DNA of 64,000 bases. Origin: an uncultured Actinomycetota bacterium (GTDB lineage: Bacteria; Actinomycetota; Actinomycetes; Actinomycetales; Dermatophilaceae). The notes under the pieces were generated by a model that saw nothing but the letters and a program-made list of their open reading frames with translations, did no database searches and was not told where the DNA came from. A program made the position numbers and the translations under genes. Of this stretch, positions 5,175 to 63,403 are shown in pieces (position 1 is the first letter of the stretch; every line of letters begins with the position of its first letter). The DNA lies in assembly GCA_963706855.1 (NCBI GenBank), contig CAVPNU010000005.1:297422-361421 (forward strand), in the 5' to 3' direction.

Positions 5175-6606
5175 TCAGACCAGCGGGCGGCGGGCTCTGC
5201 TCGAGCGGACCCGCTGCTCGCCCAGCAGCCGTTCGGCGTCGGCGAGTCCCAGATGGGCGACCTCGGTGCGCACCGGCCCGGGGGTGGACCCGAGCCGGAC
5301 GGTGGCGACGCCGCGCCACCGCTGGACGAGGCCCTGGCGCACGGCGACACCCTGGATCCGCGCGTGCGGGACCACCTGGGCCTCCCTGCGCAGCACGCCG
5401 CTGCGCAGGACGAGGCTGTCGGGCGTCACGGCATACCCCCGGCGGCGCCAGCCCACGGGGTCGAGCACCCAGGCGCGGGAGGGGGCCGTCGTGAACCCGT
5501 GGCCCGGACCGCTGCGCGTGCCGGCGACCACCGCCAGCTCGGCCGGGAGCTCAGGGCGCACGAGCGCCAGCACCGCCAGGGCCTCGGGCAACGTGCCGAC
5601 GGGCAGCAGCAGCGTCTCGGTGTCCTGCTCGCCGTGCTCATGGACACCGGCGACGTTGACCCGCAGCCGCCACCATCCGGTCCACCGCCAGAACAGGGGC
5701 TGGACCAGACCGGCTGCCTGGATCCGGTGCAGCGGGACGGTCGTCGAGCGCAGCTCGGTGAGCCCGCGGTGCACGACGAGGCGGTCACCGCGGTGGTCGA
5801 GGGTGAAGTTCGCCTCGCGCACGAGGCTGCGGACATGGCGACCCGCGACGCCGAGCACCATCGGGCCGAGCCACCCGACGAGCTGGGGCAGCCCGAGGGC
5901 GAAACCGACGAGGAGCGTGGGCACGGCAGCCAGGAGGAAGGCCGTACCGCTGCTGAAGACCGCGGCCTGGACCAACCGGACGTTGGGGACCCGCACGACC
6001 ATGGCCGACGCCACCCGCTGCGCCGCCGGGGTCACAGCGCCTCGGCCGAGGCGATGGGCGCGGAGCCGGCCGCCCCGGACGTCACCTCGTCGGCCCGGCC
6101 GGCGAGCTCCATGAGCCGCTCGCGGACCTCCTGGGCGCGGGCGTCGGTGAGGAAGGCCAGCGTGATGTGCGAGCCTCGCCCGCCCGCCGACCGGACCACC
6201 ACCTCGGAGAGCCCGGTCAGCCGCGCCAGGACGGGTCGGGAGATGTCGACGGCCTGGATCCGGTCGAACGGCACCTGCCGGTGCTCGCGGAACAGCAGGC
6301 CTCGCCGGAGCTCGACGAACGCCGACCCGATACGAAACCTGGACACCCGCCACGAGACCCACGCACCGCCGACGATCGCCAGCAGGACGACCCCGGCGAC
6401 GGCGAGGGCCAGCAGCCGGTGCCCCTGGGTGGGGTCCTGGCTCCCGGCATCGGGGCCCTGCGCCGGAACAGGCGCTCCACCTGCTGGCTGAGGACGTAGC
6501 CCACGACGGCGACGAAGGCCACCCCGCCGCGCAGCAGCGGCGACAGGGGGTGCAGGTGCTGCCACTGGCCTTGCCCGTCGGACGACGCCGGGCCCGGGTC
6601 GCTCAC
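5175..6606 (-). CDS. YdbT-like membrane protein with repeated bacterial PH (bPH_2) domains. Reading frame broken at least twice.
   Basis: N-terminus (WQHLHPLSPLLRGGVAFVAVVGYVL) lies in the 6217-6606 frame. The first PH domain (FRIGSAFVELRRGLLFREHRQVPFDRIQAVDISRPVLARLTG) lies in the 6032 frame. Two further PH repeats lie in the 5175 frame. Shifts near 6440 and 6030. Confidence 0.6.
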
Positions 6607-7095
6607 AGCCCCGCCCGTTGGGACTCACCCCGGGCCACCAGCCGCTGGCGCAGCGCCTCCGCCTGGGCCACCGACAGACCCGGGATGTCGGCGCTGAGGT
6701 GCGGGGACGCGGTGTGCAGGGTGACCTCCGCGAGGCCGAGGACCCGGTCGAGCGGCCCACTCTGGACGTCGACGTACTGCAGCCGGCCATAGGGCACGCT
6801 GACCAGCGAGCGGTTGAGCCGCCCGCGCCGCACGACGAGCTCGTCCTCGAGCTCGATCCAGCTGATCGCCGGCACCTGCCGGACCACGACCCACGTCCCA
6901 ACGGCCCCGACGAGCAGGACCACGGCGACCGCCCACCAGAAGCCGGCGCGACACCAGGACCGCGAGCGCCACGGCGACGACCAGGGGCACGGCGAGCGCC
7001 GCGGCGAGGATCACCAGCCGCGCCGCGACCAGCCGCGGGGAGACCGGCTGCCACGGCATACCGGAGTCGTCGAACAGGCGGACGTCGGGGCCCAC
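6603..7095 (-). CDS. YdbS-like PH-domain membrane protein. Frameshift near 6950.
   Basis: A TM hairpin (LVAARLVILAAALAVPLVVAVALAVLV) is followed by a bPH_2 domain (WIELEDELVVRRGRLNRSLVSVPYGRLQYVDVQSGPLDRVLGLAEVTL) in another frame. Its stop overlaps the ydbT-like start. Confidence 0.6.
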
Positions 7096-7160
7096 GCTGG
7101 CCCCCCCGACGAGGTGTCACTCACGCCACCAACCTATTGCCGCATAGGGTCACGAGCATG

Positions 7161-18051: not shown

Positions 18052-18126
18052 CCGGGCCTCCTTGGTGTGCGAGGGACGTCTTCCCCACGAACCTCTGCAC
18101 GGGTGGCTCGGCTGATGCCGTGATCT

Positions 18127-19814
18127 TCAGTTGCTGTGCGTGGCCCATTCTGCACCATGGATCACATCTGCACCAGCGCTTTCACCTGTGCCGCCACCGG
18201 CGCGGCGGATGACGACCCCGGCGGGGATGCTGCTCGCCACCGCCACAGCGGCGAGGACCGTGAGCGTCGCCCGTGCGTCCCAGCCTGCTGCCAGACCGGC
18301 CAGTGCGGTCCCGGCGGAGGAAAAGGCCACCTTCGTTCCCGCGACCGTCACGAAGACGGATCCGCGGGCCTCGGGGGGTGCGTACTCGCCGCGGGCGGCG
18401 AGGCTCAGAAGCCGTGACGACTGCCAGGGCGGGACCGTCGGGGGTGCGACGAACACGGCCAAGGACTGCGTAGGCGGCCACGACGGCTGGGAACCATCGT
18501 TCGAGCAGGACGACGGCGACCAGTGGTGGTGCGAGCGCGGCGACGAAGAGCACCATCCCCCGGTCCGGCTCCATCCTCAGGGGGCGGACGGTCAGGGCAA
18601 GTCCGCCGACCAGGCTGCCGAGTCCGAAAGCCACCGCCACCCACCCGCCGTAGCCGGTGGCCTGCTCCTCACCCAGGCTCATCCCCGTGAGCAGGGCGGC
18701 GGAGACGAGGAAGGCCCCGACCCAGGTGAGCAGCGCGACCCGTCGCAACGGGGCATGACGCAGCACTGCGGACAGCCCGGAGCGGGCCGCATCTGGTGAC
18801 GGGTGGGCGGGTTCGGTCGAAGAGCATGGGGTCGTTGGTCGTGGTGCGCATCGACGCGATCGCGGAGCTGGTGGCCGCCGCACAGGGAGGCGAAGGACGA
18901 CGTAGCCCTGGCCGACAGGCCATCGAGGGACCTCAGGCCGCCAACCGCGACTCCCGCCGCGGGGCGACGACCGCGGCGGCGAGCCGCTGCGACGAGGACC
19001 GGGGCGCCGCTACGGCGAGCGTAGGTGAGGCGTCGACCGCGCGCAGGCGCCGTGATCACGACCACGGCCAACGCAGCGAGGACCACGGACGCCACCGCTG
19101 TCCGAGCAGTGACCACATGGCTCCCCCGCGTCAGGGCGACCACCATGGCATACGCGACGGCCACGGCGAAGGCCGTCAGCCCCGAACGCTTCGGGCCGTG
19201 AGCGGACAAGGCGGGAGCAGCTGCCACAGCAGGATCACCTGTATGGCGACCAGGACGAACGCCTCGCGGAAGAAGTTGCCATCAGGGCTGTCAAAGCCGT
19301 GCAGGCGATCGCGGTCGGGTGCCAGCGCAGGGAGACGGCCACGAGGACCAGGAGCCCGAGCCCGTGAGAGTGCGACGGTCCCGAATCGTCAGCGCGACGC
19401 AGGTGGCCAGCACAGCACCGAGGAGGACGCCGATACCGAGCGACGGGGCCGACCCGAGTCCCTCGGTGCCGACCAGGAGCCGACCGGCCCAGTCCAGCCA
19501 CGTGCCCGGGACGAACGGGACGTCCTTGGTATCGCCGAGTGCTCGACCGCGACGTAGGTGGGCACGAGCACGAAAGCGTCCATGACGATCCCGAGGATGG
19601 CGAGGCCCGCCCAGCGCGCAAGCGTCACCCACGGCCGTGGCCACTCGGATGGCTTCGCCACGATCATCGCGCACACGATCAGACCCGAGGCCAGGGTGGC
19701 CATCGATGCCGTGTAGAAGTGCAGCACCAGCAGACGAAGAAGAGCAGCGGCGTCAGCCACGCCACCCGGCGGCGCTCGCGCACCAGAGCGCCAGCGTCCG
19801 CCCACAGCAACCAT
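18127..19814 (-). pseudogene. MFS transporter, reading frame broken at least four times
   Basis: TM-rich pieces lie in frames 19389-20123, 19291-19674, 18679-19227, 18182-18883 and 18127-18462. Frameshift density is higher than in neighbouring genes, so this may be a true pseudogene or an error hotspot. Confidence 0.5.
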
Positions 19815-20151
19815 GACGGTTACGCGTGCGGCCGGCCACCCAGGCAATCGGGTGTGACAGGAGCTGTATCGCCGGACACGACGTCGAGTCGGGGCACGCA
19901 AGCGAAGCGCCGGCCAGAGAGGGCTGGTGAGGAGCGCGGTAGCGATGCGGCGGGCCGGCCTCCCGGTGCGGGCCGCCAGGCGCCGCGCTCCAGCACCGTG
20001 CGTGCGCCGGTCGCGCCGGCGTCCATACAGCGCACCAGAACCGCCGCCACCATGAACGCCCCCAAGCGTTTTCCGAACACAGCGACACCCCTTCAACCGG
20101 TTACGTGTATGCGACCTTGCCACCTGAGGCGTAACCCGTCAAACTGGTGAC

Positions 20152-20701
20152 ATGAGCATGGTGCACATCGCGGGGAACACGGCGCTCGACTTCGTGGGCA
20201 CGCTCAGCGAACGCGGAACGGCCGACGAAGAGGGCCTGGTCGACCGTGCCGCCCTGGCTGCCTGGTACGTCGATGCCGGCCTGGTGGACCGGCCTCCCGC
20301 GGTGAGTGGATCCGATCTCGTGGCGGCCCGGCAGCTCCGCGAGCACCTGTACCTGCTTGCGTGTGCGCCCTGGTCGAGGGATCTCCGCCACCAGAGCGCA
20401 GCCGGTCGGCTCTCAACCGTGTCGCGCGTCGGCAGGGACCCGCGCAGACGCTCGGCCCTGACGGTCGACGGGCGCGCCGGGGTGACGCTGACGCCTGCCT
20501 CGCCGCTGTCGCCCAGGCTGGCGTGGAGCTGTTCGCGGACCGGACCGACGGGGCCGTCCGGTGCGCTGGGTCTGCGCCGACGACCGCTGCACGCACCCCT
20601 TCCTCGACCGCTCCCGAAACAAGCTGCGGCGCTGGTGCGACATGGCCACCTGCGGGGATCGCGCCAAGGTCCGCCGCTACCGCGGCACCCCTTCCGCCTG
20701 A
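20152..20701 (+). CDS. ABATE-domain / CGNR zinc-finger putative regulator. Frameshifts present.
   Basis: N-terminal ABATE-like segment (MSMVHIAGNTALDFVGTL...). The C-terminal CGNR zinc-finger RCTHPFLDRSRNKLRRWCDMATCGDRAKVRRYRG lies in another frame ending TGA 20699-20701. Confidence 0.6.
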
Positions 20702-20736
20702 TCCACCAGCGACGTGAGCGTGCGTATGCCGCGAGG

Positions 20737-23700
20737 TCAGGAGTCCTCGGCTGGAGGCCGATCACCGACGGGCAGAGTGAACGAGAACGTCGCTCCGCCA
20801 CCGGGCGTGGGGCCGGCGCAGATGCGGCCCCCGTGCTGCTCGACCAGCCCGCGGCAGATGGCGAGCCCCAGTCCGCTGCCGCCATGGTGGCGGGTGTCGG
20901 AGGAGTCGGCCTGTCGGAAGGGCTCGAAGATGACGTCGAGGTCACGGGCCTCGACTCCCCTGCCGTGGTCGGCGACGTCGAAGCGAACGTCGTGACCGGT
21001 GACCGTCGTGCTCAGCTCGACGGTGGAGCCAGCGGGTGAGAACTTGATCGCGTTGCCGATCAGGTTGGTCAGGATCTGGATGACTCGGTCTCCGTCGGCC
21101 AGGACCACACCGGGCGTGCCACCGATCGCGACGCGCACGTCTCGTTCGGTGGCCAGGACGGCGGTCTCCTCGACGGCGGTGGCGATGAGCGCTCTGACGT
21201 GGACGGTGTCGCGATGCAGGGCGAGCTGGCCCGCGGCGATGCGCTCCACGTCCAGGATGTCGGTGATGAGTCGGATGAGGCGGTCGGTGCTGGTCATGGC
21301 CACGTGCACCATGCGAGTGGCCCGGGGTGGCAGGGGCCCGGCGACGCCCCCGTCGAGGAGACCCAGGGCGCCGCGGATCGATGTCAACGGCGTGCGCAGC
21401 TCATGGCTGACCACGGAGATGAACTGGTTCTTCAGGCGCTCGAGAGCACGGCGTTCGCTGACGTCGCGGAAGACGACGACCGTGCCGGCTTCCTGCCCGT
21501 CCTGCACGATGGGGGCCGCGATGGACTCGGACTCGAAATGGGTGCCGTCGGCGCGGCGGTGTCGGCTGATGTTCCGACGGCCGGTCGCGTCGGGCTCATC
21601 GCCATCGCTGTCCGGCTCGGTGGGGATCACCTCGGCTTCGAGGCGACCGACCATGTCTTCGCGGGACCGTCCGAGCAGCGCGGCGCCGGCGTGGTTGACG
21701 AACGTGACCCGACGCGGCGGTATCCAGCCCGTAGATGCCTTCGCCTGCCGAGTTCAGGACGGTCTCCAGCTGGGTGGACAGCTGCTCGAGCTGTTGGGCG
21801 TGACGGGTCTGACGCAGCTCGGCGCGGTGACGTTCGACGACTCGGCCCAGCTGGGTGCCGACCTGGTCCATGATCCGCAGGAGGTCATCGGGGGGCTCCA
21901 TGGCCTGGGAGCTGAAGAACTCCAGCACGCCGACGGGTTCGTGACCCACCAGGATGGGAAAGGCACAGGTGGCGACCAGACCGGCCCGGCAGGCGGCTTC
22001 GTAACGGACGAAATGCGGGTCGGCCTCCAGGGGAGACAGGTAGACCGGCGAGGGGTTCGAGAGCATGGCGTGGACCAGCCTCACCTGACGCGTGGAAAGC
22101 GCCTGCGTGGCGTCCCGGAAGTCGGCGAACGCACCGGCGTCTGCTCATACCAGACCGAGTGCGCAAGAGCCGTGGGGTCGTCGTGGTCGGTCAGGTAGGC
22201 GTGGGCCAGCTGCCACCCGCCGAACTGGGCGAAGGACTCCAACGCGGCGCTCAAGGCCTGCTCCACCCCGATGGCCGAGTTCGACGCGGTGGCGACGGTG
22301 CTGAGCAGTTCCAAGGTGCGCGCCTGGTGCTGCAGCGCCAGCTCGGCGGCGTGCCGCTCGGTGATGTCTCGGGTGACCTTGCCGAACCCTCGGAGCTGCC
22401 CCTGCTGGTCGTGTAGCGCGGTCAGGACCGCGCTGGCCCAGAAGCGGGACCCGTCTTTGCGGACGCGCCACCCCTCGTCCACCGCGCGACCCTGCACGCG
22501 GGCGGTCTCCAGCTGACGTTCGGGTTTCCCCGCCGCGACGTCCTCCTCGGGGTAGAACACCGAGAAGTGCTGGCCGAGGATGTCCTGCTCGGCGTAGCCC
22601 TTGATCTGCTGCGCGCCGGCGTTCCAGGTGATGACACGGCCGGTGGGATCGAGGTTGTAGATCGCGATGTCGCGCACCTGGGCTACCCACAGCCGCAGGT
22701 TGTCCTGGCTGTCGTGGAGGTCAGCCTGGAGGCGTCGCTTCTCGGTGACGTCGCGGAAGCTCCAGACCCGGCCCGTGATGGCGTCGCCGACGCGCTCCGG
22801 TTGGGAGTAGCGCTCGAAGACTCGGCCGTCGCGGAACGTCAGCTCGTCGAAGCTGGTCATCTCCGGGTGGGAGTAGAGCTGTTCGACCCTGGCGATGAAA
22901 CCGTAGGGGTCCACGAGGTGGTCGACGACGGAGGCCATCACGCGGGCGTCGCTACCGGACTCCAGCAGGTGTGGGTCGAGCCCCCACATGCGGGCGAAGG
23001 TCGGGTTGTGCCCGACGATCCGGCCCGCGCGGTCCACGACCAGGATCCCGTCGACCGTCGACTCCAGCGTCGCGGACAGCAACGCCTCCGAGGAGGCCAT
23101 CTGGTGGTGTTCGCCGGCCGGACGATGGCCAGAGCTGCCAGCTGGGCCGCCCACTCGGGCAGGTCAGCGTCGGCTTCCGGGGGCTGCACCCCGGGCGGGT
23201 ATCGCAGCACGAGGCGTCCTAGCACCGCACCGGTGGCCGAGTGAATGGGCGTGGTCCGCACCGGACCGTGAGGGTCGCCGGCAGCTTCAGAACGATCCAC
23301 ACCGAGGGCCCCCACCGCCATCCCGGGTCCGCCGGTGGCGGTGAGGTCATCGGTCTCGATGACGCACCGGGCAGGCCCGCTGAGCCGTTCCACTGCGCGT
23401 ACGAGCAGCATCAGTGCCTGTGCCAGCTCTGCGCCAGCGGCCACTGCTTCGACGATCTCGACGTGGGCGGCCAGCTTCAGCTCGGTGCGCTTGCGGGTGG
23501 TGATGTCCAGCAGGAAGCCGTGGAGCAGCCCCTCGCCGTCGGGTCCCTGCTCCATGACTGCGTCATCAAGGACCCACACGACCTGCCCGTCGGGACGGAT
23601 GACCCGGTACTCCGAGCACGCCCGACCGCAGGTGTCGGCGGCAGAACGCTCCTGGGACAGGACCATGCCCTGGTCATGAGGGTGGATGTGGGCCATCCAG

Positions 23701-23900
23701 ATACCCGGGTCGCTCTGAAGCTGCTCGGCGGTGAAGCCCAGAATGCGGCTGACTGCACCACTGACATACAGCCATCGGCCGATCGGGCCCGGCTCGGCGA
23801 CGTACGTGGCCAGGCCCAGCCGCTCAGCCAGCGCGGACTCGGCAAAACGGGGAACGCCCACGGCGCCCCGCAATGATCTTCCCGTCTGCTCGCCAGTCAC
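20737..23900 (-). CDS. large cytoplasmic sensor histidine kinase of about 1050 aa (PAS-GAF-PAS-PAS-GAF-PAS-HisKA-HATPase_c). Three frameshifts.
   Basis: Pieces 22938-23900 (PAS/GAF), 22081-23154 (two PAS), 21596-22084 (GAF) and 20737-21654 (PAS tail, HisKA SHELRTPLTSI, HATPase N/G boxes) join into one protein with no TM segment. Shifts near 23100, 22085 and 21710. Confidence 0.75.
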
Positions 23901-23912
23901 GCTCGTCCTTCC

Positions 23913-26869
23913 TCAGGAGTCGGCGGTGAGGGTGCGCAGCAGGCCGATGACCTTGCGTGCGAACTCGTCCCAGGACTCCCCGGACTTGGTCACGAACCGG
24001 GTCTGACCGAGCAGCAGGCGACGCCGGTCCTCGGCGCTGAGCTGGGTGCCCGTGTAGACCAGCAGGGGTAGCGTCCGCAGCCGCTCCTCGCGTCGTAGCT
24101 CCTCGACCACGGCATACCCGTCGATGTCCGGCAGACCCAGGTCCAGGACGAGCAGGTCCGGGGGCACCTCACGGCTCATGGCCAGCGCCTGGGCGCCGGT
24201 GTGGGCGACCCGAGCACGAACGCCGTGGTCGGTGAAGAACATCGCCAGCATCTCGGCGACGTCTTCGTCGTCCTCGACCACCAGGACGCTGGTGGTCGGC
24301 CCGGTCCCCAGGGCCCGGCGTAGCGAGGCCATCAGGGCCTGCTGGTCGACCGGCTTGGTCAGCCAGGACGACGCCGCGGGGACCGCCATGTCGTCGGGGG
24401 CCAGCGCAGACAAGATGATGATCGGGATGTCCGCCGTCACAGGGTCGGCCCGCAACGCTGCGATGGTCTCCCAGCCGGACATGCCCGGCATCCGCAGATC
24501 CATCACCACCACGCTGGGCGCCTGGTCGCCGGCCAAGGCCAGGGCCTCGGGGCCACTATGGGCGCGCAGGGTGGCATAACCATGGGACTCGAGCATCGCG
24601 GAGAGGACCTCGACCACGTCGGGGTCGTCGTCGCAGACCAGGACCGCGCCCACCGGGAGCGGCCCGGCGCCCATCTCTTCGCCGGGAGCCGGCGCTGCCG
24701 GAAGGGTGAAGGTGAACGTGGTGCCCTGCCCGACCTCACTGGTGGCCCAGATCCGTCCGCCGTGCTGCTCGATGATCCCGCGACAGATGGGCAGCCCCAG
24801 GCCGGTGCCCGCTTTGGCGCGGCTGTCGGAGGCATCGGCCTGGGTGAACCGGTCGAAGATGGCCTCGAGCTGGTCGGCCGGGATGCCGCTGCCCTGGTCG
24901 GTGACGGTGAACTGCACGAGGTTCTTGGAGTCCGGTCGGCCCGGCCGCCAGCAGCACCGTGCTTCCCGGCGGAGAGAACTTGATGGCGTTGCTGATCAGG
25001 TTGGTCAGGGCTTGCGCCACTCGGTCCGGGTCTGCGAGCACCGTGGCGTTGATGGGCAGGGCGGCCAGCGTGACGTCGGCCTGCGCGGCCATGGCCCGCA
25101 TCTCCTCGATGGCGCCCGCGACGATCTGGGCTGCGGGCAGCGGAGCCAGGTCGAGCTCGAGCTTTCCTGCGGCCATCTTCTCGATGTCGAGGATGTCGTT
25201 GACCAGGCGCACCAGTCGCTGGCTGCTGTTCAGGGCGACATCGGCCATCCGCTGAGCCTTGGGTGGCAGCGCGCCGACGGCACCGCCGGCGAGCAACCCC
25301 AGGGCGCCTCGGATGGAGGTCAGCGGCGTGCGCAGCTCGTGGCTGATGACGGCGACGAACTCGTCCTTCATCCGCTCCAGGGCACGCTGCTCGGTGACGT
25401 CCTGCATGGTGCCGACCAAACGCACGAACTGGCCATCGGCATCACGGATCGCCTTGCCATGGGCGACGACCTCGCGCACCGCCCCGTCGGGCCGAACGAT
25501 GCGGTACTGCCCTTCGACGTCAGCGGGAGACTGGGCCACCGCATGACGGTTCCGCATCACCTCGGCCAGGTCTTCGGGGTGGACCCGCGCGGCGAACAGC
25601 TCCTCGTGGGAGCCGGGTGTGTGCGGTTCCAGACCCAGGATCCGGTAGAACTCCTCGCTCCACTCAGTGGCCCCGGTGCGGGGGTCCCACTGCCAGCTCC
25701 CGATGTGTGCCAGCTGCTGGGCAGCCTGCAGCTCGTCGTTGGTGTGGGCCTGTCGCTCGCTGGTGCTCTTCAGGTTGCGCAGCAGTGCGTCGTTGCGGCG
25801 AGCCAGCCGGTAGAGGAAGAAGGCGAGCATCAGCATCACCACCAGCACGGCGGCAGCCGCCGCGACGGTCCACGCCACGGCCCGCCTCTGCTCGCTGACG
25901 GCGGCCGCGCTCTCGACGGCGGCTTGCCTGGCCAGGTTGGTGGTCAGGTCGGCCTGAGGCTGCTCCAGAGCGGCGAAGGCGCGCTCGAAGCGCGGAAGCT
26001 GGGCTCGGGCGGCCGGCGGGTTGGTCGCGGCCAGGCCCACGAGGGCCACGGCCTGCGCGCCGTAGGACTGCAGGCGCGGACGCAGCTGGTCGACTTGCGC
26101 TGCGAGCGCAGCGTGGGCTGTCGACCGGGTCCAAGCGCCGCAGGTCACTGTCCAACCGGGCGACGTGCGCGCTGACGGCCTCCTGCGCCGCCGGGCGGCT
26201 TGCCCCAGCTTGGGTGTGGCTGAGGACCGCCGCCAAGACGTCGGCATGGAGAGTGTCGTGCAGCATGTCCGCGTCCTGCTGGTACCTCTGGGCCGTCAAC
26301 AGCAGCACGGCGTTGTCGTGCGCGCGGCTCACCTGGTCAAAACCGGTCAGAGCCGTGATCACCACCAGCAGCGGCAACACGAGCGACACCACCGCGGCGA
26401 TCAGCAGGCCGCGTCGCAGCGCGTGACCACTGGTCAGGTCCGGCCCCAGCAGGTCAGGTTCGCTAGCCACGGGAAGCCTCTCCCCCGGCGTGGCGGCGTC
26501 GGCGGGGTCGGCGGGGTCGGCGGGGTCGGCCAGAGCCTGGCGCAGCAACGCCACCTGCTCCAGACCGGCCCGGGCTTGCGCTTGCGGGTCGGCGTCGATG
26601 GTGTCCAACAGTGCTTCCAGGTCCCGGCCAAGCCGGCTCGCCAGCGGGAAGCCGAAGGTGCCTGCGGACCCCGCGAGCGAGTGCGCGGCGGCGCGCGCGT
26701 TGAGCCGCATCTCCTCGGGCAGGTCGCCGTCGAGCAGGGCCTGCAGGGCTTGGGCGATGACGTCGGCCCGGGCACCATTGCTGATCCGGGCACGCTCGCG
26801 GAAGCCGGCCATCGCATCATCGAGCTCGCTGTGCTCGACCCCGTCGGCACGGCCTGGGTCGGTGGTCAT
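23913..26869 (-). CDS. hybrid sensor histidine kinase of about 985 aa with an N-terminal Hpt domain. Order is Hpt-TM-helical sensor-TM-PAS-HisKA-HATPase_c-REC-REC. Two frameshifts.
   Basis: N-terminal Hpt signature AHSLAGSAGTFG. Two hydrophobic segments flank a helical periplasmic-type domain of about 200 aa. PAS (HIGSWQWD), HisKA (ISHELRTPLTSI), ATPase, then two receiver domains (VLVCDDDPD...DLRMPGMSG and VLVVEDDEDV...DLGLPDIDG). Shifts near 26135 and 24940. Confidence 0.75.
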
Positions 26870-27273
26870 CAGGACCAGCCCAGCAGTGCGGACAGCTCCG
26901 CGGGCAGAAGCATCGGGTCGAAGGGCTTCACGAGCACGCCCTCGACCGGCAGGCTGGCGAAGGCGGCGCGATCTGCGGCCTGGACCTTTGCAGTCAGCAG
27001 GACGATCGGGATATGGCGCGTGGCAGGCTCAGCTTTCAGTGCCAGCGCCGCCGTCGGGCCATCCATCCCGGGCATCATGACGTCCATGACGATGGCGTCG
27101 GGCTGCTCTGCCGTCGCCCGTTCCACGCCTTCGCGCCCATCGGCGGCGGTGGTCACGACCCAGCCCCCGACGGCCTCCAGGCTCATCGTGGCGACCTCCA
27201 GGATCAGGTCGTCGTCGTCGACGACAAGGACGCGCCGCTGCCCACCGACATTTGCCTCCGGAGCTGGGCTCAT
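26869..27273 (-). CDS. stand-alone receiver-domain response regulator (CheY-like, no output domain)
   Basis: 134 aa. Phospho-acceptor context VLVVDDDDLI...DVMMPGMDG...LLTAK. Stop/start overlap (TGATG) with the downstream hybrid kinase. Confidence 0.85.
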   Translation of the reverse strand: MSPAPEANVGGQRRVLVVDDDDLILEVATMSLEAVGGWVVTTAADGREGVERATAEQPDAIVMDVMMPGMDGPTAALALKAEPATRHIPIVLLTAKVQAADRAAFASLPVEGVLVKPFDPMLLPAELSALLGWS

Positions 27274-27448
27274 CGGGTCGCGAACGCCGGCGGTCGGGGT
27301 GCTTTGATGCGCATTCGCCTAGTGTGCCCGACTTACCCCCGGGACGCGCCCCGTTGCCGACACGTCGACGTGTGAGAAGCCCTGAGAGCAAAAGCGGTCA
27401 GTCTGGCCTCGGGCCGATGGCGGCCGGGTCCGGCCCACGCAGGCGTCT

Positions 27449-28493
27449 CTAACGGCTCGAGAGCACAGCTGAGGTCGAGCCGCCGGGACTCTCGCGGGGC
27501 AGGACGAGGTCGAACGCGGTTCTGGGATGGTGTGCTCGGACCATCCGACCGCCGCACGCCGCCGCAAGCTGCTCGGCCACTGGCAAGCCGATCCCCTCGC
27601 CGGCCGAGGATGACGGTGCCACCGCCGCGGTCGTGGGAGTGCCCTGGTCGGCGACCCGCAGCCTGACGCTGTCGGCCATGACGTCGACACTGACCTCGAT
27701 GTCCCCGACGCCGTGCTTGATCGCGTTGTCGATCAGGACGTCGAGCACCTGCGAGGCCGGCCCCGCCGGGGCCGGCACCTGACAGATGGGTAGCTCGCCG
27801 GCCAGCCGCAGCGCCCGCCCGGCGGCCCGGGCGGTCGATGCCCAGCGGTGCGTGGCGTGGACGGCCAGGACCGCCGGGTCGGTTTCGTAACGGCCCGCTG
27901 GCAACGCTGCCGCGCCGGGCCAGGGCCAGCAGGTCGGCGATGATGTCGGCGAGCCGGTCCACCTCCGCGCGAGCGCGCTGCAGGTCCGCCCGCACCATAC
28001 GCGGGGTCTCCGGATGCATCGTGAGCTCTTCGATCTGCAGCCCCAGCGCAGTCAACGGGGTCCGGAGCTGGTGCGCGACCTGGCCACTGAACGCTCGCTC
28101 CTGCGCGAGCTGGGCGTGCAGCCGAAGAGCGCTCAGGCGCATCGCCGCCAGCACGTCAGTCAGCCCATCGGCGTCGGTGGACGCCGATGGGCTGACAGCG
28201 CTGACCTCGTCGAGATGACGGGCGGCGTCCAGCAGCACCGCGTGGGAGCGCCGGTACCGCGTCTGCCCGCGCCAGGCCCGGGCGAGCAGCACGGTCGAGG
28301 GCACCGCGCCGAGAGCCGGCCGCCACCAGCCAGCCCACCAGCGTCCTACCGCTCGGCTCCCCCAGATGGGGAGCCGGGAGCCTGCCCGCTGGCGAGCTGC
28401 CACGGCCAGGACGGCGGCGGCCACGATGACGCCCAAGAGTGCCAGCCCCAACACCATTCCCGATAGGCGCCGACGCCGAGGCGTGCTGCTCAT
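27449..28493 (-). CDS. membrane sensor histidine kinase (short extracytoplasmic loop, HisKA + HATPase_c). Frameshift near 27900.
   Basis: N-terminal TM helix. HisKA H-box (AHQLRTPLTAL) in the 27333-28493 frame. ATP-binding domain (LIDNAIKHG...GEGIGLPV) in the 27449-27904 frame. Confidence 0.7.
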
Positions 28494-28735: not shown

Positions 28736-28812
28736 GGGGCAGTAGCTCAGTCGGTCAGAGCAGCGGACTCATAATCCGTCGGTCGTCGGTTCAAGCCCGA
28801 CCTGCCCCACCA
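28736..28812 (+). tRNA. tRNA-Met (anticodon CAT). Elongator type, though a tRNA-Ile2 (lysidine) cannot be excluded.
   Basis: GGGGCAGTAGCTCAGTCGGTCAGAGCAGCGGACTCATAATCCGTCGGTCGTCGGTTCAAGCCCGACCTGCCCCACCA. G1-C72 is paired and CCA is encoded. Confidence 0.85.
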
Positions 28813-28963: not shown

Positions 28964-29467
28964 ATGGCCGACATCATCGATCTCATCGTCGAAGACCACC
29001 AGTGGTTCAGGCAGCGCTTCTTCAACCTCGATGCTGCCAGGAGCGAAGCGGAGCTGCGGGCCGTCTGGGAGCCCTTGGCCATCCGGCTGGAAACACATGC
29101 CGACGCCGAGGAGACGATCTTCTATCCTTCCTTGCTCAAACGGGGCGAGTCCGGTGACCCCAAGGACGAGACCGAAGACGCGATCCACGACCACAACGAG
29201 ATTCGCGACGCCATCAGGGCCGCCCGGGCTGAAGAGGTCGGCACACAGCAGTGGTTCGCGGCCGTCGGTGAAGCCAGGAAACAGAACGGCCAGCACATGG
29301 ACGAAGAGGAGCGCGAAGGCCTCCCCGACTTCCTCAAGAGCACGACGGGCGAGCTACGGCACGACCTCGCCATGCAATGGCTGCAGTTCTTCTACGAGCA
29401 CCCCCAGGGCAGGGGCGTCCCTGACGAGGACAAGGACCCCAAGGCCTACATCGAGGACAACGCCTGA
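28964..29467 (+). CDS. hemerythrin HHE cation-binding domain protein
   Basis: 167 aa with spaced His/Glu ligands (IVEDHQW..., HADAEE, HDHNEIRD, HMDEEE). Intact. Confidence 0.75.
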   Translation: MADIIDLIVEDHQWFRQRFFNLDAARSEAELRAVWEPLAIRLETHADAEETIFYPSLLKRGESGDPKDETEDAIHDHNEIRDAIRAARAEEVGTQQWFAAVGEARKQNGQHMDEEEREGLPDFLKSTTGELRHDLAMQWLQFFYEHPQGRGVPDEDKDPKAYIEDNA

Positions 29468-29565: not shown

Positions 29566-31049
29566 TTGGATGGGCCGATGGGTCCAGTCGTGCGCGTCAC
29601 CGGGGGTCAGGTTCGAGGGTCGACACGCGACGGCGTCAACGCCTTCCTCGGCATCCCGTATGCCGCCCCGGCCGTGGGTGCGGACCGGTACCGCGCCCCG
29701 GGGCCGGTCGTCCCCTGGGACGGTGAGCGGGACGGGGCCTCGCCCGGACCGACAGCCAGCCAGGCGGCATACCCACCGCCGATGGATGCGCTCCTGCCGA
29801 GCTCGGTGGCACCTGGCGTCGACTACCTCAACGTCAGCGTCTGGGCACCGACCGACGGAGCCGACCGACCGGTGATGGTGTGGATCCACGGCGGGGCGTT
29901 CGTCCGCGGCGCGAACTCGTTGGCCGTGTACGACGGCTCCGCGTTCGCCCGCGACGGCGTGGTGCTCGTGAGCGTCAACTACCGCCTCGGGGTCCCCGGG
30001 TTCGCGGTGCTGGACGGCGCCCCGACGAACCTGGACTGCGCGACCAGATCGCGGCCCTGCAATGGGTGCGCGACAACGTCGCTGCGTTCGGTGGCAACCC
30101 GGATGACGTCACCGTGTTCGGGGAGTCCGCGGGCGGCATGAGCGTGGCGACTCTGATGGCCTCCCCCGCGGCACGCGAGCTGTTCCACCGGGCCATCGTC
30201 CAGAGCGGCGGCGCGACGGCCGTCTGCTCACTCGACGACGCGAGCCGGGTGAGCCGCGAGATCGCCGCTCGCCTTTCGGTCCCTGCGACGGCGGAGGCCT
30301 TCGCCGCCCTCGACCCCGACCTCGTGACGGCAGCTCAGTCAGCCGTGGGACTGGCGATGCAGACCGACCCCGACCCGGACCGATGGGGGCCGACGGTGCT
30401 CAGCGGCGGGCTCGGCATCATGAGCCTGTTTCCCGTCGTCGACGGCGACGTCGTCCCCGATGTCCCACTCGCCTGCATCGCCGACGGTTCCGCCGCCGGC
30501 ATACCCCTGCTCATCGGCACGACGCGCGAGGAGTTCCGGCTCTTCCTCGTGCCCACGGGCATCGCTGCGTCGGTGACGCGAGAGGCGTTGCCATTGTTGG
30601 CTTCTCGCTACGGCTGGCCCCAACAGGCCGTCGAGGTGTATGCCGCGAACCGCCCCGACGCCTCGCCCGGTGACCTCGCCTGCGCCATCCTCACGGATGC
30701 GGGGTTCCGTGTGCCGGCTCACCGTCTCGCGTCCGCCCACCACGGCGCGGGCGGGTCGGTCCATGCCTACGAGCTCGGCTGGCCGAGCCCCGTTGCGGGA
30801 CTGGGAGCCTGCCACGCCCTCGAGCTGCCCTTCGTCTTCGACACGGTGGGGCGTGGTGCGCCCATGGCAGGTGATGCTGCCCCGCGGCAGCTCGCCGACA
30901 CCATGCATCAGGCCTGGGTGGAGTTCGCACGTCACGGGGCGCCGGGGTGGCAGTCCTGGACGCCGCAGAGCCCGGCGGTCATGACGTTCGACGTGGACTC
31001 TCGCGTGGTCCTTGGACCGCGTGCCGACGAGCTGGCCATCTGGGACTGA
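29566..31049 (+). CDS. type-B carboxylesterase (para-nitrobenzyl esterase-like). Frameshift near 30040.
   Basis: N-terminus ([13 protein letters not shown] oxyanion hole) lies in the 29566 frame. GESAGG nucleophile elbow and the rest lie in the 29880-31049 frame. Confidence 0.8.
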
Positions 31050-60520: not shown

Positions 60521-61851
<1,331 letters not shown>

Positions 61852-61869
61852 GGGAGGCTCACGAGGCGC

Positions 61870-62366
61870 ATCAGGAGGAGGTGCGGCCGCGACCGGCGAG
61901 GAAGGTCAGCAGCAGCTGGCGCTGGAGCTCGAACATCTCGCGCTCCTCCTCGGGCTCCGCGTGGTCGTAGCCGAGCAGGTGCAGGATGCCGTGGGTCGTC
62001 AGGAGCAGCAGCTCCTCCTCGGTCGCGTGACCCGCCTCGGCGGCCTGCCGGGCGGCCACCGACGGGCACAGGACGATGTCGCCGAGGACGCCCTCCTGCG
62101 GGTCGTCGCCCTCGCGCCCGGGCCGCAGCTCGTCCATGGGGAAGCTCATCACGTCGGTCGGGCCCGGGCAGGTCCATCCACTGCACGTGGAGCACCTCCA
62201 TGGCCGCCTCGTCGACGAGCCGCAGGCACAGGTCGGCGCCGGGGTGCACCCGCATCTGCTCCATGACGTACTTGCTCAGCGCCACCAGCTCGAGCTCGTC
62301 GAGCTGGTGGTCGGTCTCATTGAGAACGTCGACGCTCACGCTGACCTCGCCCTCCTCGACCTGCAT
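61870..62366 (-). CDS. ybeY: rRNA maturation endoribonuclease YbeY. Frameshift near 62155.
   Basis: HGxLHLxGYDH metal-binding motif ([11 protein letters not shown]) in the 61871-62152 frame. N-terminus in the 61848-62366 frame. Confidence 0.8.
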
Positions 62367-63403
62367 CCCGGCCGTCCCGCTGGTCGCGGTGCTGGACCTC
62401 GTCCCAGCGGCCGTAGGCGTCGACGATGGCGCCGACGAGCCGGTGCCGCACGACGTCCTGGGGGGTCAGCATCGAGAAGTGGATGTCCTCGACGTCCGCC
62501 AGGATCTCGCGGACGACGCGCAGGCCCGACTTCGTGCCGTCGGGCAGGTCGACCTGGGTGACGTCACCCGTGACCACCATCTTGGAGCCGAACCCGAGCC
62601 GGGTCAGGAACATCTTCATCTGTTCCGGCGAGGTGTTCTGGGCCTCGTCGAGGATGATGAACGCGTCGTTCAACGAGCGGCCACGCATGTAGGCGAGCGG
62701 GGCGACCTCGATGGTGCCGGCTGCCATGAGACGCGGGATCGACTCGGGGTCGACCATGTCGTGCAGCGCGTCGTAGAGCGGGCGCAGGTAGGGGTCGATC
62801 TTGTCGTTGAGCGTGCCGGGCAGGAAGCCGAGCCGCTCCCCCGCCTCGACGGCCGGCCGGGTCAGGATGATCCGGTTGACCTGCTTGGCCTGGAGCGCTG
62901 CGACCGCCTTGGCCATCGCCAGATAGGTCTTGCCTGTGCCTGCGGGGCCGATGCCGAACACGACCGTGTGCTCGTCGATCGCGTCGACGTAGTGCTTCTG
63001 GTTGAGCGTCTTGGGCCGGATGGTGCGACCGCGGTTGCGTCACGATGTTCATGGTGAGCACGTCGGCGGGTCGCTCGGTCGTCTGGGCGCGCAGCATGCT
63101 GATCGACCGCTCCACCGCGTCGCGGTTGAGGGGCTGGCCGCCCTCGATGACGAGCAGCAGCTCGTCGATGGTCCGCTCGGCCAGGGCCACCTCGGCACTC
63201 GGGCCGGACAGGTGGAACTCGTTGCCCCGCACGTGGATCTGCAGCTGCGGGAAGGCTCGCTCCATCGTCCGCAGCAGCTCGTCGCGCGGTCCGAGGAGGG
63301 TGACCATCTGCACCTGCGGCGGGATCACGACGGTGTGTGTGGGCGCGGGCCGGGCGGCATCGGGCGCGCCGTCCAGCGTGGTCGGATGATCGGCGTCAGG
63401 CAT
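62350..63403 (-). CDS. phoH: PhoH-like ATPase. Frameshifts near 63010 and 62390.
   Basis: KH-like N-terminal domain in the 62564-63403 frame. P-loop [13 protein letters not shown] and the PhoH core in the 62317-62961 frame. Confidence 0.8.

Follow-up and report, generated by a model that had tools for sequence, protein, structure and literature searches.

We analysed a 64-kb window (~71% G+C) of contig CAVPNU010000005.1, a stretch of DNA from an uncultured actinobacterium, in which a cluster of histidine kinase and receiver genes lies on the minus strand at positions 20737-28493. Along that strand the genes are designated D (a small membrane-anchored kinase), C (a single-domain response regulator, written REC in gene orders), Hpt, B (a hybrid kinase) and A (a soluble kinase). 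Judged from its sequence, the cluster is a real signalling locus that is conserved in one soil actinobacterial family, the Intrasporangiaceae. The reading that we favour, and that we hold to be fairly probable, is a multi-input His-Asp-His-Asp phosphorelay that would be specific to this lineage and would end in the single-domain response regulator. REC-Hpt-B(-A) would be transcribed from their own promoter and D separately, and the frameshifts and the gene fusion seen in the window would be artefactual.

Domain composition of the locus

The list of open reading frames (ORFs) for the region shows fragments instead of four clean genes. Pfam searches with the raw ORF fragments and with frame-corrected proteins both gave three HisKA/HATPase transmitters, three receivers and one Hpt, which is the inventory claimed in the initial annotation. 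Inspection showed every phospho-acceptor motif (SHELRTPL in both A and B, AHQLRTPL in D and AAHSLAGSAGTFG in Hpt), and the D/D/T-S/K residues are kept in all three receivers. The reported spacings were also confirmed: the ATG of Hpt at 26869 overlaps the stop codon of REC (TGATG), and A starts 12 nucleotides (nt) past the stop codon of B. The coordinates of the features are summarized in Table 1.

Table 1 Features of the signalling locus in the window.
Feature	Position	Strand	Description and basis
Gene A	20737-23900	(-)	Soluble multi-PAS/GAF histidine kinase, ~1055 aa, no receiver; Pfam
Frameshifts in A	~23109-23118; ~22135; ~21708-21722	(-)	Placed by orthologue alignment
Gene B	23913-26470 (23913-26869 as read)	(-)	Hybrid histidine kinase, ~850 aa; GTG start 26470; Pfam
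Frameshifts in B	~26114; ~24934-24944	(-)	Placed by orthologue alignment
Hpt	26463-26869	(-)	Pfam PF01627 E = 2.8e-7; ~135 aa if a 1-nt indel is corrected
Linker between Hpt and B	26492-26527	(-)	PADPADPAD; 9-nt repeat, three tandem units (GGCGGGGTC on the + strand)
Gene C	26869-27273	(-)	Single-domain response regulator, 134 aa, intact ORF; Pfam Response_reg E = 7e-23
Upstream ORF	27270-27314	(-)	14 codons, MRIKAPRPPAFATR and stop; TGA overlaps the REC ATG (ATGA)
-10-like element	27321-27327	(-)	GCACACT, 6 nt 5' of the ATG of the upstream ORF; conserved
Gene D	27449-28493	(-)	Small membrane-anchored HisKA/HATPase_c kinase, ~347 aa after correction; Pfam
Frameshift in D	~27894-27907	(-)	Placed by orthologue alignment

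The transfer from a hybrid histidine kinase through an Hpt to a response regulator is the canonical multistep relay, and all of its parts are present. B has the HisKA histidine, a HATPase_c domain and a C-terminal receiver aspartate, Hpt has the conserved phospho-accepting histidine, and C is a linked terminal receiver that stands in the same order in six related loci (L003, L005, L082, L083, L084 and L086). A hidden Markov model (HMM) built from the receiver domains detected no receivers beyond C and the two of B in a six-frame translation of the window. No output response regulator was called next to the module in L082, L083, L085-L087 and L168, and no output-domain regulator is kept nearby across the neighbourhoods of 12 related loci. 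The claim that the cluster has no output module thus holds, and a canonical output response regulator adjacent to it, the finding that had been named as fatal to the proposal, was not encountered in the window, and none is conserved in the related loci.

B consists of a transmembrane (TM) helix, a ~190-aa loop, a second TM helix, PAS, HisKA, HATPase_c and two REC domains, with Hpt at its N-terminus as read. In the frame-corrected protein the Pfam E-values are 2.4e-19 for HisKA, 1.3e-31 for HATPase_c and 2.7e-39 for the two Response_reg domains, and the motifs MDLRMPG and LDLGLPD were found beside SHELRTPL. The region between the TM helices had no significant Pfam or PDB sequence match. Its AlphaFold2 model (pLDDT 88) matched four-helix bundle sensors in Foldseek, namely 4k0d (histidine kinase Adeh_2942), MCP2201, Vc1313 and Tar/Tsr, with TM-scores of 0.7-0.85 and weak E-values; the B sensor accordingly models as an extracytoplasmic four-helix bundle.

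A has the architecture PAS, probable GAF, PAS, PAS, GAF, PAS, HisKA and HATPase_c, and full-length orthologues with 54-62% identity were found in Pedococcus, Nostocoides and Phycicoccus. Its kinase core is a paralogue of that of B (72-74% nucleotide identity over ~530 nt), and A is assigned to the hybrid-kinase clade though it carries no receiver. The domains for dimerization and histidine phosphotransfer (DHp) of A and B are 66% similar (81% in helix alpha-1), compared with medians of 63% and 81% between B and unrelated hybrid kinases. A special similarity of the two DHp domains was considered and rejected because the values equal the family background.

Conservation and linkage in Intrasporangiaceae

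Co-occurrence elsewhere had been proposed as a check on the cluster. REC, Hpt, B, D and A do recur side by side in Intrasporangiaceae, and the relatives belong to Pedococcus, Terrabacter, Phycicoccus and Nostocoides. The order in the window and in L001, a 1.5-kb metagenome contig that is 95% identical, is D> REC> Hpt B>, with A> next in the window (arrowheads give the direction). L082, L083 and L084 read REC> Hpt> B> <D, and L086, from a Pedococcus metagenome-assembled genome (MAG), reads REC> Hpt> B> <D A>. In L002, also a Pedococcus MAG, B> <D remains, REC is truncated and Hpt is missing. L085 and L087 carry <Hpt <REC / A> followed by a different PAS-PAS-HK-REC-REC-Hpt hybrid, A being divergent from REC-Hpt, and L004 (Phycicoccus) has GAF-HK> <Hpt <REC B> with REC-Hpt divergent. 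L168 has REC> B> and no Hpt, and L081 has the same REC-B junction on a contig that ends just upstream.

Contiguous REC-Hpt-B with overlapping stop and start codons is found in the window and in L003 (Terrabacter terrigena), L005, L082, L083, L084 and L086. Orthologues of D adjoin B, convergently, in five loci (L002, L082, L083, L084 and L086), and orthologues of A adjoin REC-Hpt in three (L085, L086 and L087) and in two different architectures. The flanks are highly rearranged and flanking genes are otherwise not common to the loci. Linkage that survives such rearrangement argues for a functional coupling of REC, Hpt, B, D and A. Overall, the comparison shows a core of REC and a hybrid kinase, usually with Hpt, around which the other members vary.

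Of the proteins in the module, C is the most highly conserved. Its orthologues were found in all related loci with 62-80% identity, and L001 encodes the identical protein from a gene that differs by three synonymous and zero nonsynonymous codons. A metagenome scan with the REC alignment, which used the generic patterns [IV]VMDVMM and LVVDDD[ED]L, gave no further orthologous loci among the matches listed. The 31 B orthologues are 62-94% identical and 724-870 aa long (one partial protein has 643 aa). Cyanobacterial matches to B were rejected as orthologues, because they share kinase-core similarity only (e.g. a 1740-aa Nostoc protein). This protein, at 9242-14464 of L020 (Nostoc sp. 106C), has the order REC, OmpR-type DNA-binding, Hpt, REC, PAS, GAF, PAS, PAS, HisKA, HATPase and two REC, and a 128-aa receiver-only gene follows it; by its domains it is a whole relay plus output in one polypeptide.

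Several features were observed in single relatives. L082 (6535-8673) and L168 (6858-7997) encode orthologous MEDS + HATPase_c_2 (RsbW-like) proteins, 70% identical, 0.5-1.6 kb upstream of REC. In L082 a STAS protein and one of the GAF-ANTAR type go with them, and nothing similar to the MEDS/RsbW-like or STAS partners was found in the window. Such a partner-switching module is a possible lead to the target of the receiver. In L002 (1-700), all that is left of REC, behind a YkuD-like ORF, is the C-terminal 52 residues, and both B and the convergent D are intact; the gap, which includes Hpt, reflects either a true deletion or a chimera in the MAG contig. L083 (2263-3522 and 14437-15778) has a class III nucleotide cyclase directly upstream of REC, and ~7 kb downstream of the module it carries an integrase of phage type together with an HTH gene.

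Frameshifts and the Hpt–B junction

None of the three kinase genes is an intact ORF in the window. Six frameshifts fall within 7.7 kb; D has one of them, B has two and A has three. The six are almost certainly assembly errors and not biology, to judge from several comparisons. L001 is without the extra base at ~26114, the sole shift inside its span. A crude frame HMM counted 0.77 same-strand frame switches per kb within the cluster and 0.73 per kb beyond it, and an unrelated carboxylesterase (COesterase) gene is likewise broken over two frames (29566-30141 and 29880-31049 on the plus strand). After frame correction the three kinase genes have zero internal stops and every motif is intact. Moreover, the codon differences from L001, which lie in REC, Hpt and the B N-terminus, are mostly synonymous (20 synonymous and 11 nonsynonymous; 3:0, 4:4 and 13:7, respectively), and these substitutions show a pattern of purifying selection. 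A decaying pseudogene locus with six genuine frameshifts would account for their accumulation over so short a distance and for the broken ORFs that stand as database protein products (P0032, 470 aa, and P0245, 386 aa). Both products were traced to one 978-kb contig, probably the source assembly, and this counts among the signs of artefact as well. Against the uniform switch density, the split esterase, the intact corrected genes, the unshifted relative and the excess of synonymous differences, we regard decay as highly improbable. Indel errors appear to run through the whole assembly at roughly one per kb; runs of 100-250-nt frame segments were also seen at 60713-63337 and 6035-7115.

As read in the window, Hpt runs in frame into B, and it was this N-terminal-Hpt hybrid kinase that gave the cluster its unusual look. 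None of the 31 B orthologues contains PF01627. They start at the equivalent of GTG 26470 except for five N-terminally truncated or partial proteins (P0011, P0014, P0025, P0030 and P0031), and the closest one, P0001 (94% identity), begins VASEPD exactly as in the window. In every related locus that has it (L001, L003, L004, L005 and L082-L087), Hpt stands as a gene by itself and encodes 102-156 aa. It sits between REC and the hybrid kinase, with stop and start codons that usually overlap, and in L004, L085 and L087 REC-Hpt is divergent. Stand-alone proteins of 104-160 aa make up 16 of the 17 best relatives of Hpt among representatives of 1.84 billion clusters, and the motif AAHS[LV]AG[SA]AGTFG is invariant in eight Hpt orthologues.

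The ancestral end of Hpt (GEASRG-TAG, with the TAG at 26463-26465 overlapping the GTG of B) survives in another frame in the window. This stop would be regained by a one-base indel close to the G5 run (26482-26486), and the linker between Hpt and B is 23 nt shorter in L001; the Hpt frame enters B only because of this difference in length. The fusion is thus likely to be an assembly artefact, and five genes are likelier than the four first counted. For annotation, the lesson is that a one-base indel in an error-rich assembly can produce an exotic-looking N-terminal-Hpt hybrid kinase that is not found in error-free relatives.

A conserved promoter-like element upstream of REC

The 175-nt gap between D and C carries a conserved promoter-like element. 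Nine loci have a -10-like CACACT, exactly 6 nt, an ATG and then an ORF of 12-14 codons upstream of REC. The motif GCACACT with the exact 6-nt spacing is also present in L001, L003, L004, L005, L082, L083 and L086, and variants were observed in L168 (CAGACT and 7 nt) and in L085 and L087 (CACCAT and 6 nt); in the latter two the corresponding ATG shares the reading frame of REC. The pattern GCACACT-N6-ATG occurs a single time in the window. The stop codon of the upstream ORF overlaps the REC start (xTGA) in the nine loci, and its length and overlap are kept while the peptide sequence varies.

The GCACACT element is a probable promoter of the REC-Hpt-B(-A) transcription unit. By the usual spacing of actinobacterial promoters, a 6-nt gap is read as a leaderless start, and because the spacing fits, the upstream ORF is probably leaderless with a transcript that begins at its ATG. 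Leaderless short ORFs are well documented as first cistrons in mycobacteria (PMC4633059; bioRxiv 10.1101/834739). The layout suggests a leaderless leader peptide that is translationally coupled to REC. With the element and the upstream ORF before it, REC would head its own unit, which probably comprises REC, Hpt and B and here probably A too, and D is probably expressed separately. A single four-gene operon, as initially proposed, is unlikely given this element and the convergence of D with B in five other loci.

A scan for sigma-70 promoters and terminators over 20-29 kb gave nothing above chance, and a tRNA was the sole Rfam match. A perfect 14-bp palindrome, ACACGTCGACGTGT, at 27360-27373 (-) precedes the -10-like element by ~35 nt. 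L001 has it and more distant relatives do not, and consequently it provides no evidence for an operator role.

Kinase D belongs to a narrow family

D has an N-terminal membrane anchor, no HAMP and no recognizable sensor domain. Its orthologues form ~21 clusters with 56-90% identity, followed by a sharp drop to at most 44% (DraK-like kinases). D and the 21 orthologue clusters carry PF00512 and PF02518 only, and PF18092 and PF00672 are confined to the matches at or below 44%. The H-box of D, AHQLRTPL, is combined with a short ATP lid: the distance from the N-box to G2 is 43-47 residues, compared with a median of 61 in the A/B family, and an alignment indicated the HQ and the lid deletion in all orthologues.

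In HisKA proteins only the kinase activity depends on the acidic residue at H+1, and only the phosphatase activity on the Thr/Asn at H+4 (PMC3510030). The Gln at H+1 of D together with Thr at H+4 suggests, as a hypothesis, a bias towards phosphatase activity. A reading of D as a dead kinase on account of this Gln was downgraded, because all 98 DraK-like matches with a recognizable H-box have Gln at H+1 in a word-indexed search that was itself biased towards the Gln H-box motif. The lids of these matches are 48-56 residues, and many carry HAMP and DraK sensor domains like ordinary kinases. Since DraK-like kinases share both the H+1 Gln and a short lid, we read the two as clade traits.

DraK-type kinases (Pfam DraK_HK_N, PF18092) are the closest relatives of D, with a core that is 32-44% identical and the shared H-box HQLRTP. 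In contrast to them, the D orthologues lack the DraK N-terminal sensor and HAMP, are ~80 aa shorter, have an even shorter lid and are not adjacent to an OmpR-type regulator, so that D does not qualify as a DraK/DraR-type kinase.

Surroundings of the cluster in the window

A tRNA-Met gene (28736-28812) and a gene for a 167-aa hemerythrin (28964-29467), both on the plus strand, lie upstream of and divergent from D. In L086, too, the module is preceded by a hemerythrin gene. The hemerythrin was discarded as a conserved partner: the proteins of the window and of L086 are only 23% identical, and the adjacency was taken to be a coincidence. A genomic island at tRNA-Met was also dropped, as neither a repeat of the tRNA 3' end nor att-like direct repeats were found. 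On the other side of the cluster, the region 18071-20820 has almost no coding signal in a model of third-position G+C by frame, and its AT skew is +0.25. Pfam searches with ORFs from this region gave no matches except for a weak YfhO-like one at 19389-20123 (-) and an ABATE/CGNR gene from 20152 (+).

Comparison with known systems

Multistep relays with a separate Hpt include LuxN/LuxQ-LuxU-LuxO of Vibrio and the hybrid kinases that feed HptB in Pseudomonas. As in these relays, the present locus has a hybrid kinase, a small stand-alone Hpt and a separate receiver in succession, with several kinases that would converge on one relay. The terminal component differs, since LuxO belongs to the NtrC-type regulators and HsbR is built of REC and PP2C, whereas the terminal acceptor here is a bare receiver. 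The putative HmrABCX system of Caulobacter (PMC11481889) likewise has hybrid kinase, Hpt-like and further kinase genes clustered without a DNA-binding regulator. The host here is actinobacterial, unlike those of the Lux, HptB and Hmr systems, and sequence orthology to them was not indicated, as no NCBIfam equivalog passed its cut-off for any cluster protein.

The initial annotation matched the combination to no described system, but loci with at least two transmitters, several receivers and no output domain have been described as abundant (PMC3018481), and worked examples are available in RedCDEF (PMC2755868), HmrABCX and MrrA (PMC5964349). RedCDEF of Myxococcus xanthus is similar in that it comprises kinases and receivers only, with a kinase in the membrane, a module of two receivers, another kinase-like protein and a single-domain regulator that they control. 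RedE is the phosphatase of this regulator, and by analogy such a role is plausible for D. The two systems differ: RedCDEF has no Hpt and the HisKA domain of RedE takes that part, the two receivers of RedD form a separate protein and are fused to kinase B here, and a third, PAS/GAF kinase is present here. RedE cannot autophosphorylate, which may or may not be so for D. With an Hpt and a fused dual receiver the locus falls outside the RedCDEF type; the likeness is at the domain level only, and orthology was indicated by no search. MrrA of Caulobacter is comparable as a single-domain receiver that was proposed to collect phosphate from several kinases and has no output domain of its own. Differently from the present case, it shuttles phosphate onward to LovK and PhyK and controls the PhyR partner switch. 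LovK/PhyK/PhyR-like partners were not found near the window locus, and among the relatives only L082 has an RsbW-like kinase together with STAS upstream of REC, while L168 has just the kinase.

The locus is also distinct from classical two-component systems, as it has no adjacent output-domain regulator, and from CheA/CheW/CheY-like chemotaxis systems, as its kinases are of the HisKA type; Pfam detected no CheW, MCPsignal or H-kinase_dim domains in the cluster proteins or the scanned neighbours.

Proposed relay and alternatives

In the relay that we propose, B would use its Tar-like four-helix bundle to sense an extracytoplasmic small-molecule or envelope cue and its PAS domain to sense a cytoplasmic one. 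It would autophosphorylate on the HisKA histidine and hand the phosphoryl group on to one of the two receivers that it carries, from which the group would move to the stand-alone Hpt and then to receiver C. Phosphorylated C would signal to an unlinked target through protein-protein contact, in the manner of CheY, DivK, MrrA and RedF. The cytoplasmic PAS/GAF kinase A may be a second input into the same receivers, and the sensor-less, membrane-anchored D of the DraK-like clade may act directly on C as a second kinase and/or a phosphatase. REC, Hpt, B and probably A would be transcribed from the promoter just upstream of REC via the leaderless, translationally coupled upstream ORF, and D would be expressed apart from this relay unit. 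The multi-input phosphorelay of the initial annotation is retained in this proposal as regards its several kinase inputs and its lack of an output regulator, and abandoned as regards one operon of four genes. Single-domain response regulators are known to serve as hubs or terminal regulators (PMC5964349, PMC2755868).

Several points weigh against this proposal. The choice of the relaying B receiver and the contact of A and D with C or B are pure inference, and the A-B DHp similarity does not point to a specific partner. In L168 REC and B have no Hpt between them, and L081 is alike, although it ends at the contig edge; L003, L004 and L005 are without D and most loci are without A, which suggests that the five-part set is not obligatory. 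Hpt-B could be a real, strain-specific in-frame fusion, and C could be a phosphate sink instead of an output.

The variable membership also bears on whether A and D are orphan kinases of unrelated pathways that stand by chance beside a small REC-Hpt-hybrid kinase relay. Orphan kinases abound in actinobacterial genomes, several loci (L003, L004, L005 and L168) lack A and D, the 175 nt with the promoter-like element part D from C, and the flanks are highly rearranged. A chance juxtaposition is nevertheless quite unlikely: the narrow D family (~21 clusters) stands beside B in both orientations wherever context is available, A stands beside orthologous REC-Hpt pairs in three loci with two architectures, and linkage that outlasts rearrangement is a classic sign of functional coupling. 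C may instead be a sink or buffer for phosphate, with the true output, a DNA-binding or enzymatic response regulator, encoded elsewhere and fed by Hpt, A or D, while D drains phosphorylated C. This second alternative, which corresponds to the sink network of the initial annotation and which we consider unlikely, agrees with the local lack of an output domain and with the precedent of RedE and RedF (PMC2755868). D would suit it with Gln in place of the acidic residue beside the phospho-histidine and Thr kept at H+4 (by the rule of PMC3510030), and with its lid well below the median of the A/B family. The same Gln and shortish lids (48-56 residues) in DraK-like kinases mark these as clade traits, and the top conservation of C fits a specific downstream partner better than a passive sink. 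A more elaborate reading would build an Intrasporangiaceae-specific, RedCDEF-like circuit around the Hpt, in which A and B load C via the dual receiver of B and Hpt, the lid-truncated, DraK-derived D is a dedicated phosphatase or reverse-flow sink, the upstream ORF gates expression and C controls an unlinked non-transcriptional target, e.g. an RsbW/STAS partner switch; as a whole we regard it as unlikely.

A phosphorelay ending in C remains the preferred reading, and the locus is, as far as its composition tells, an uncharacterized actinobacterial example of a known phosphorelay type. To our knowledge, no actinobacterial Hpt-based relay has been dissected, and such relays are uncommon in the phylum. 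The HPt domain was found in only 14.5% of surveyed actinobacterial species (PMC4558063). A compact and conserved five-protein set in which every phospho-acceptor site can be identified would be tractable for studying how kinases share one single-domain regulator. The same set may serve to ask what single-domain regulators bind in a Gram-positive soil lineage.

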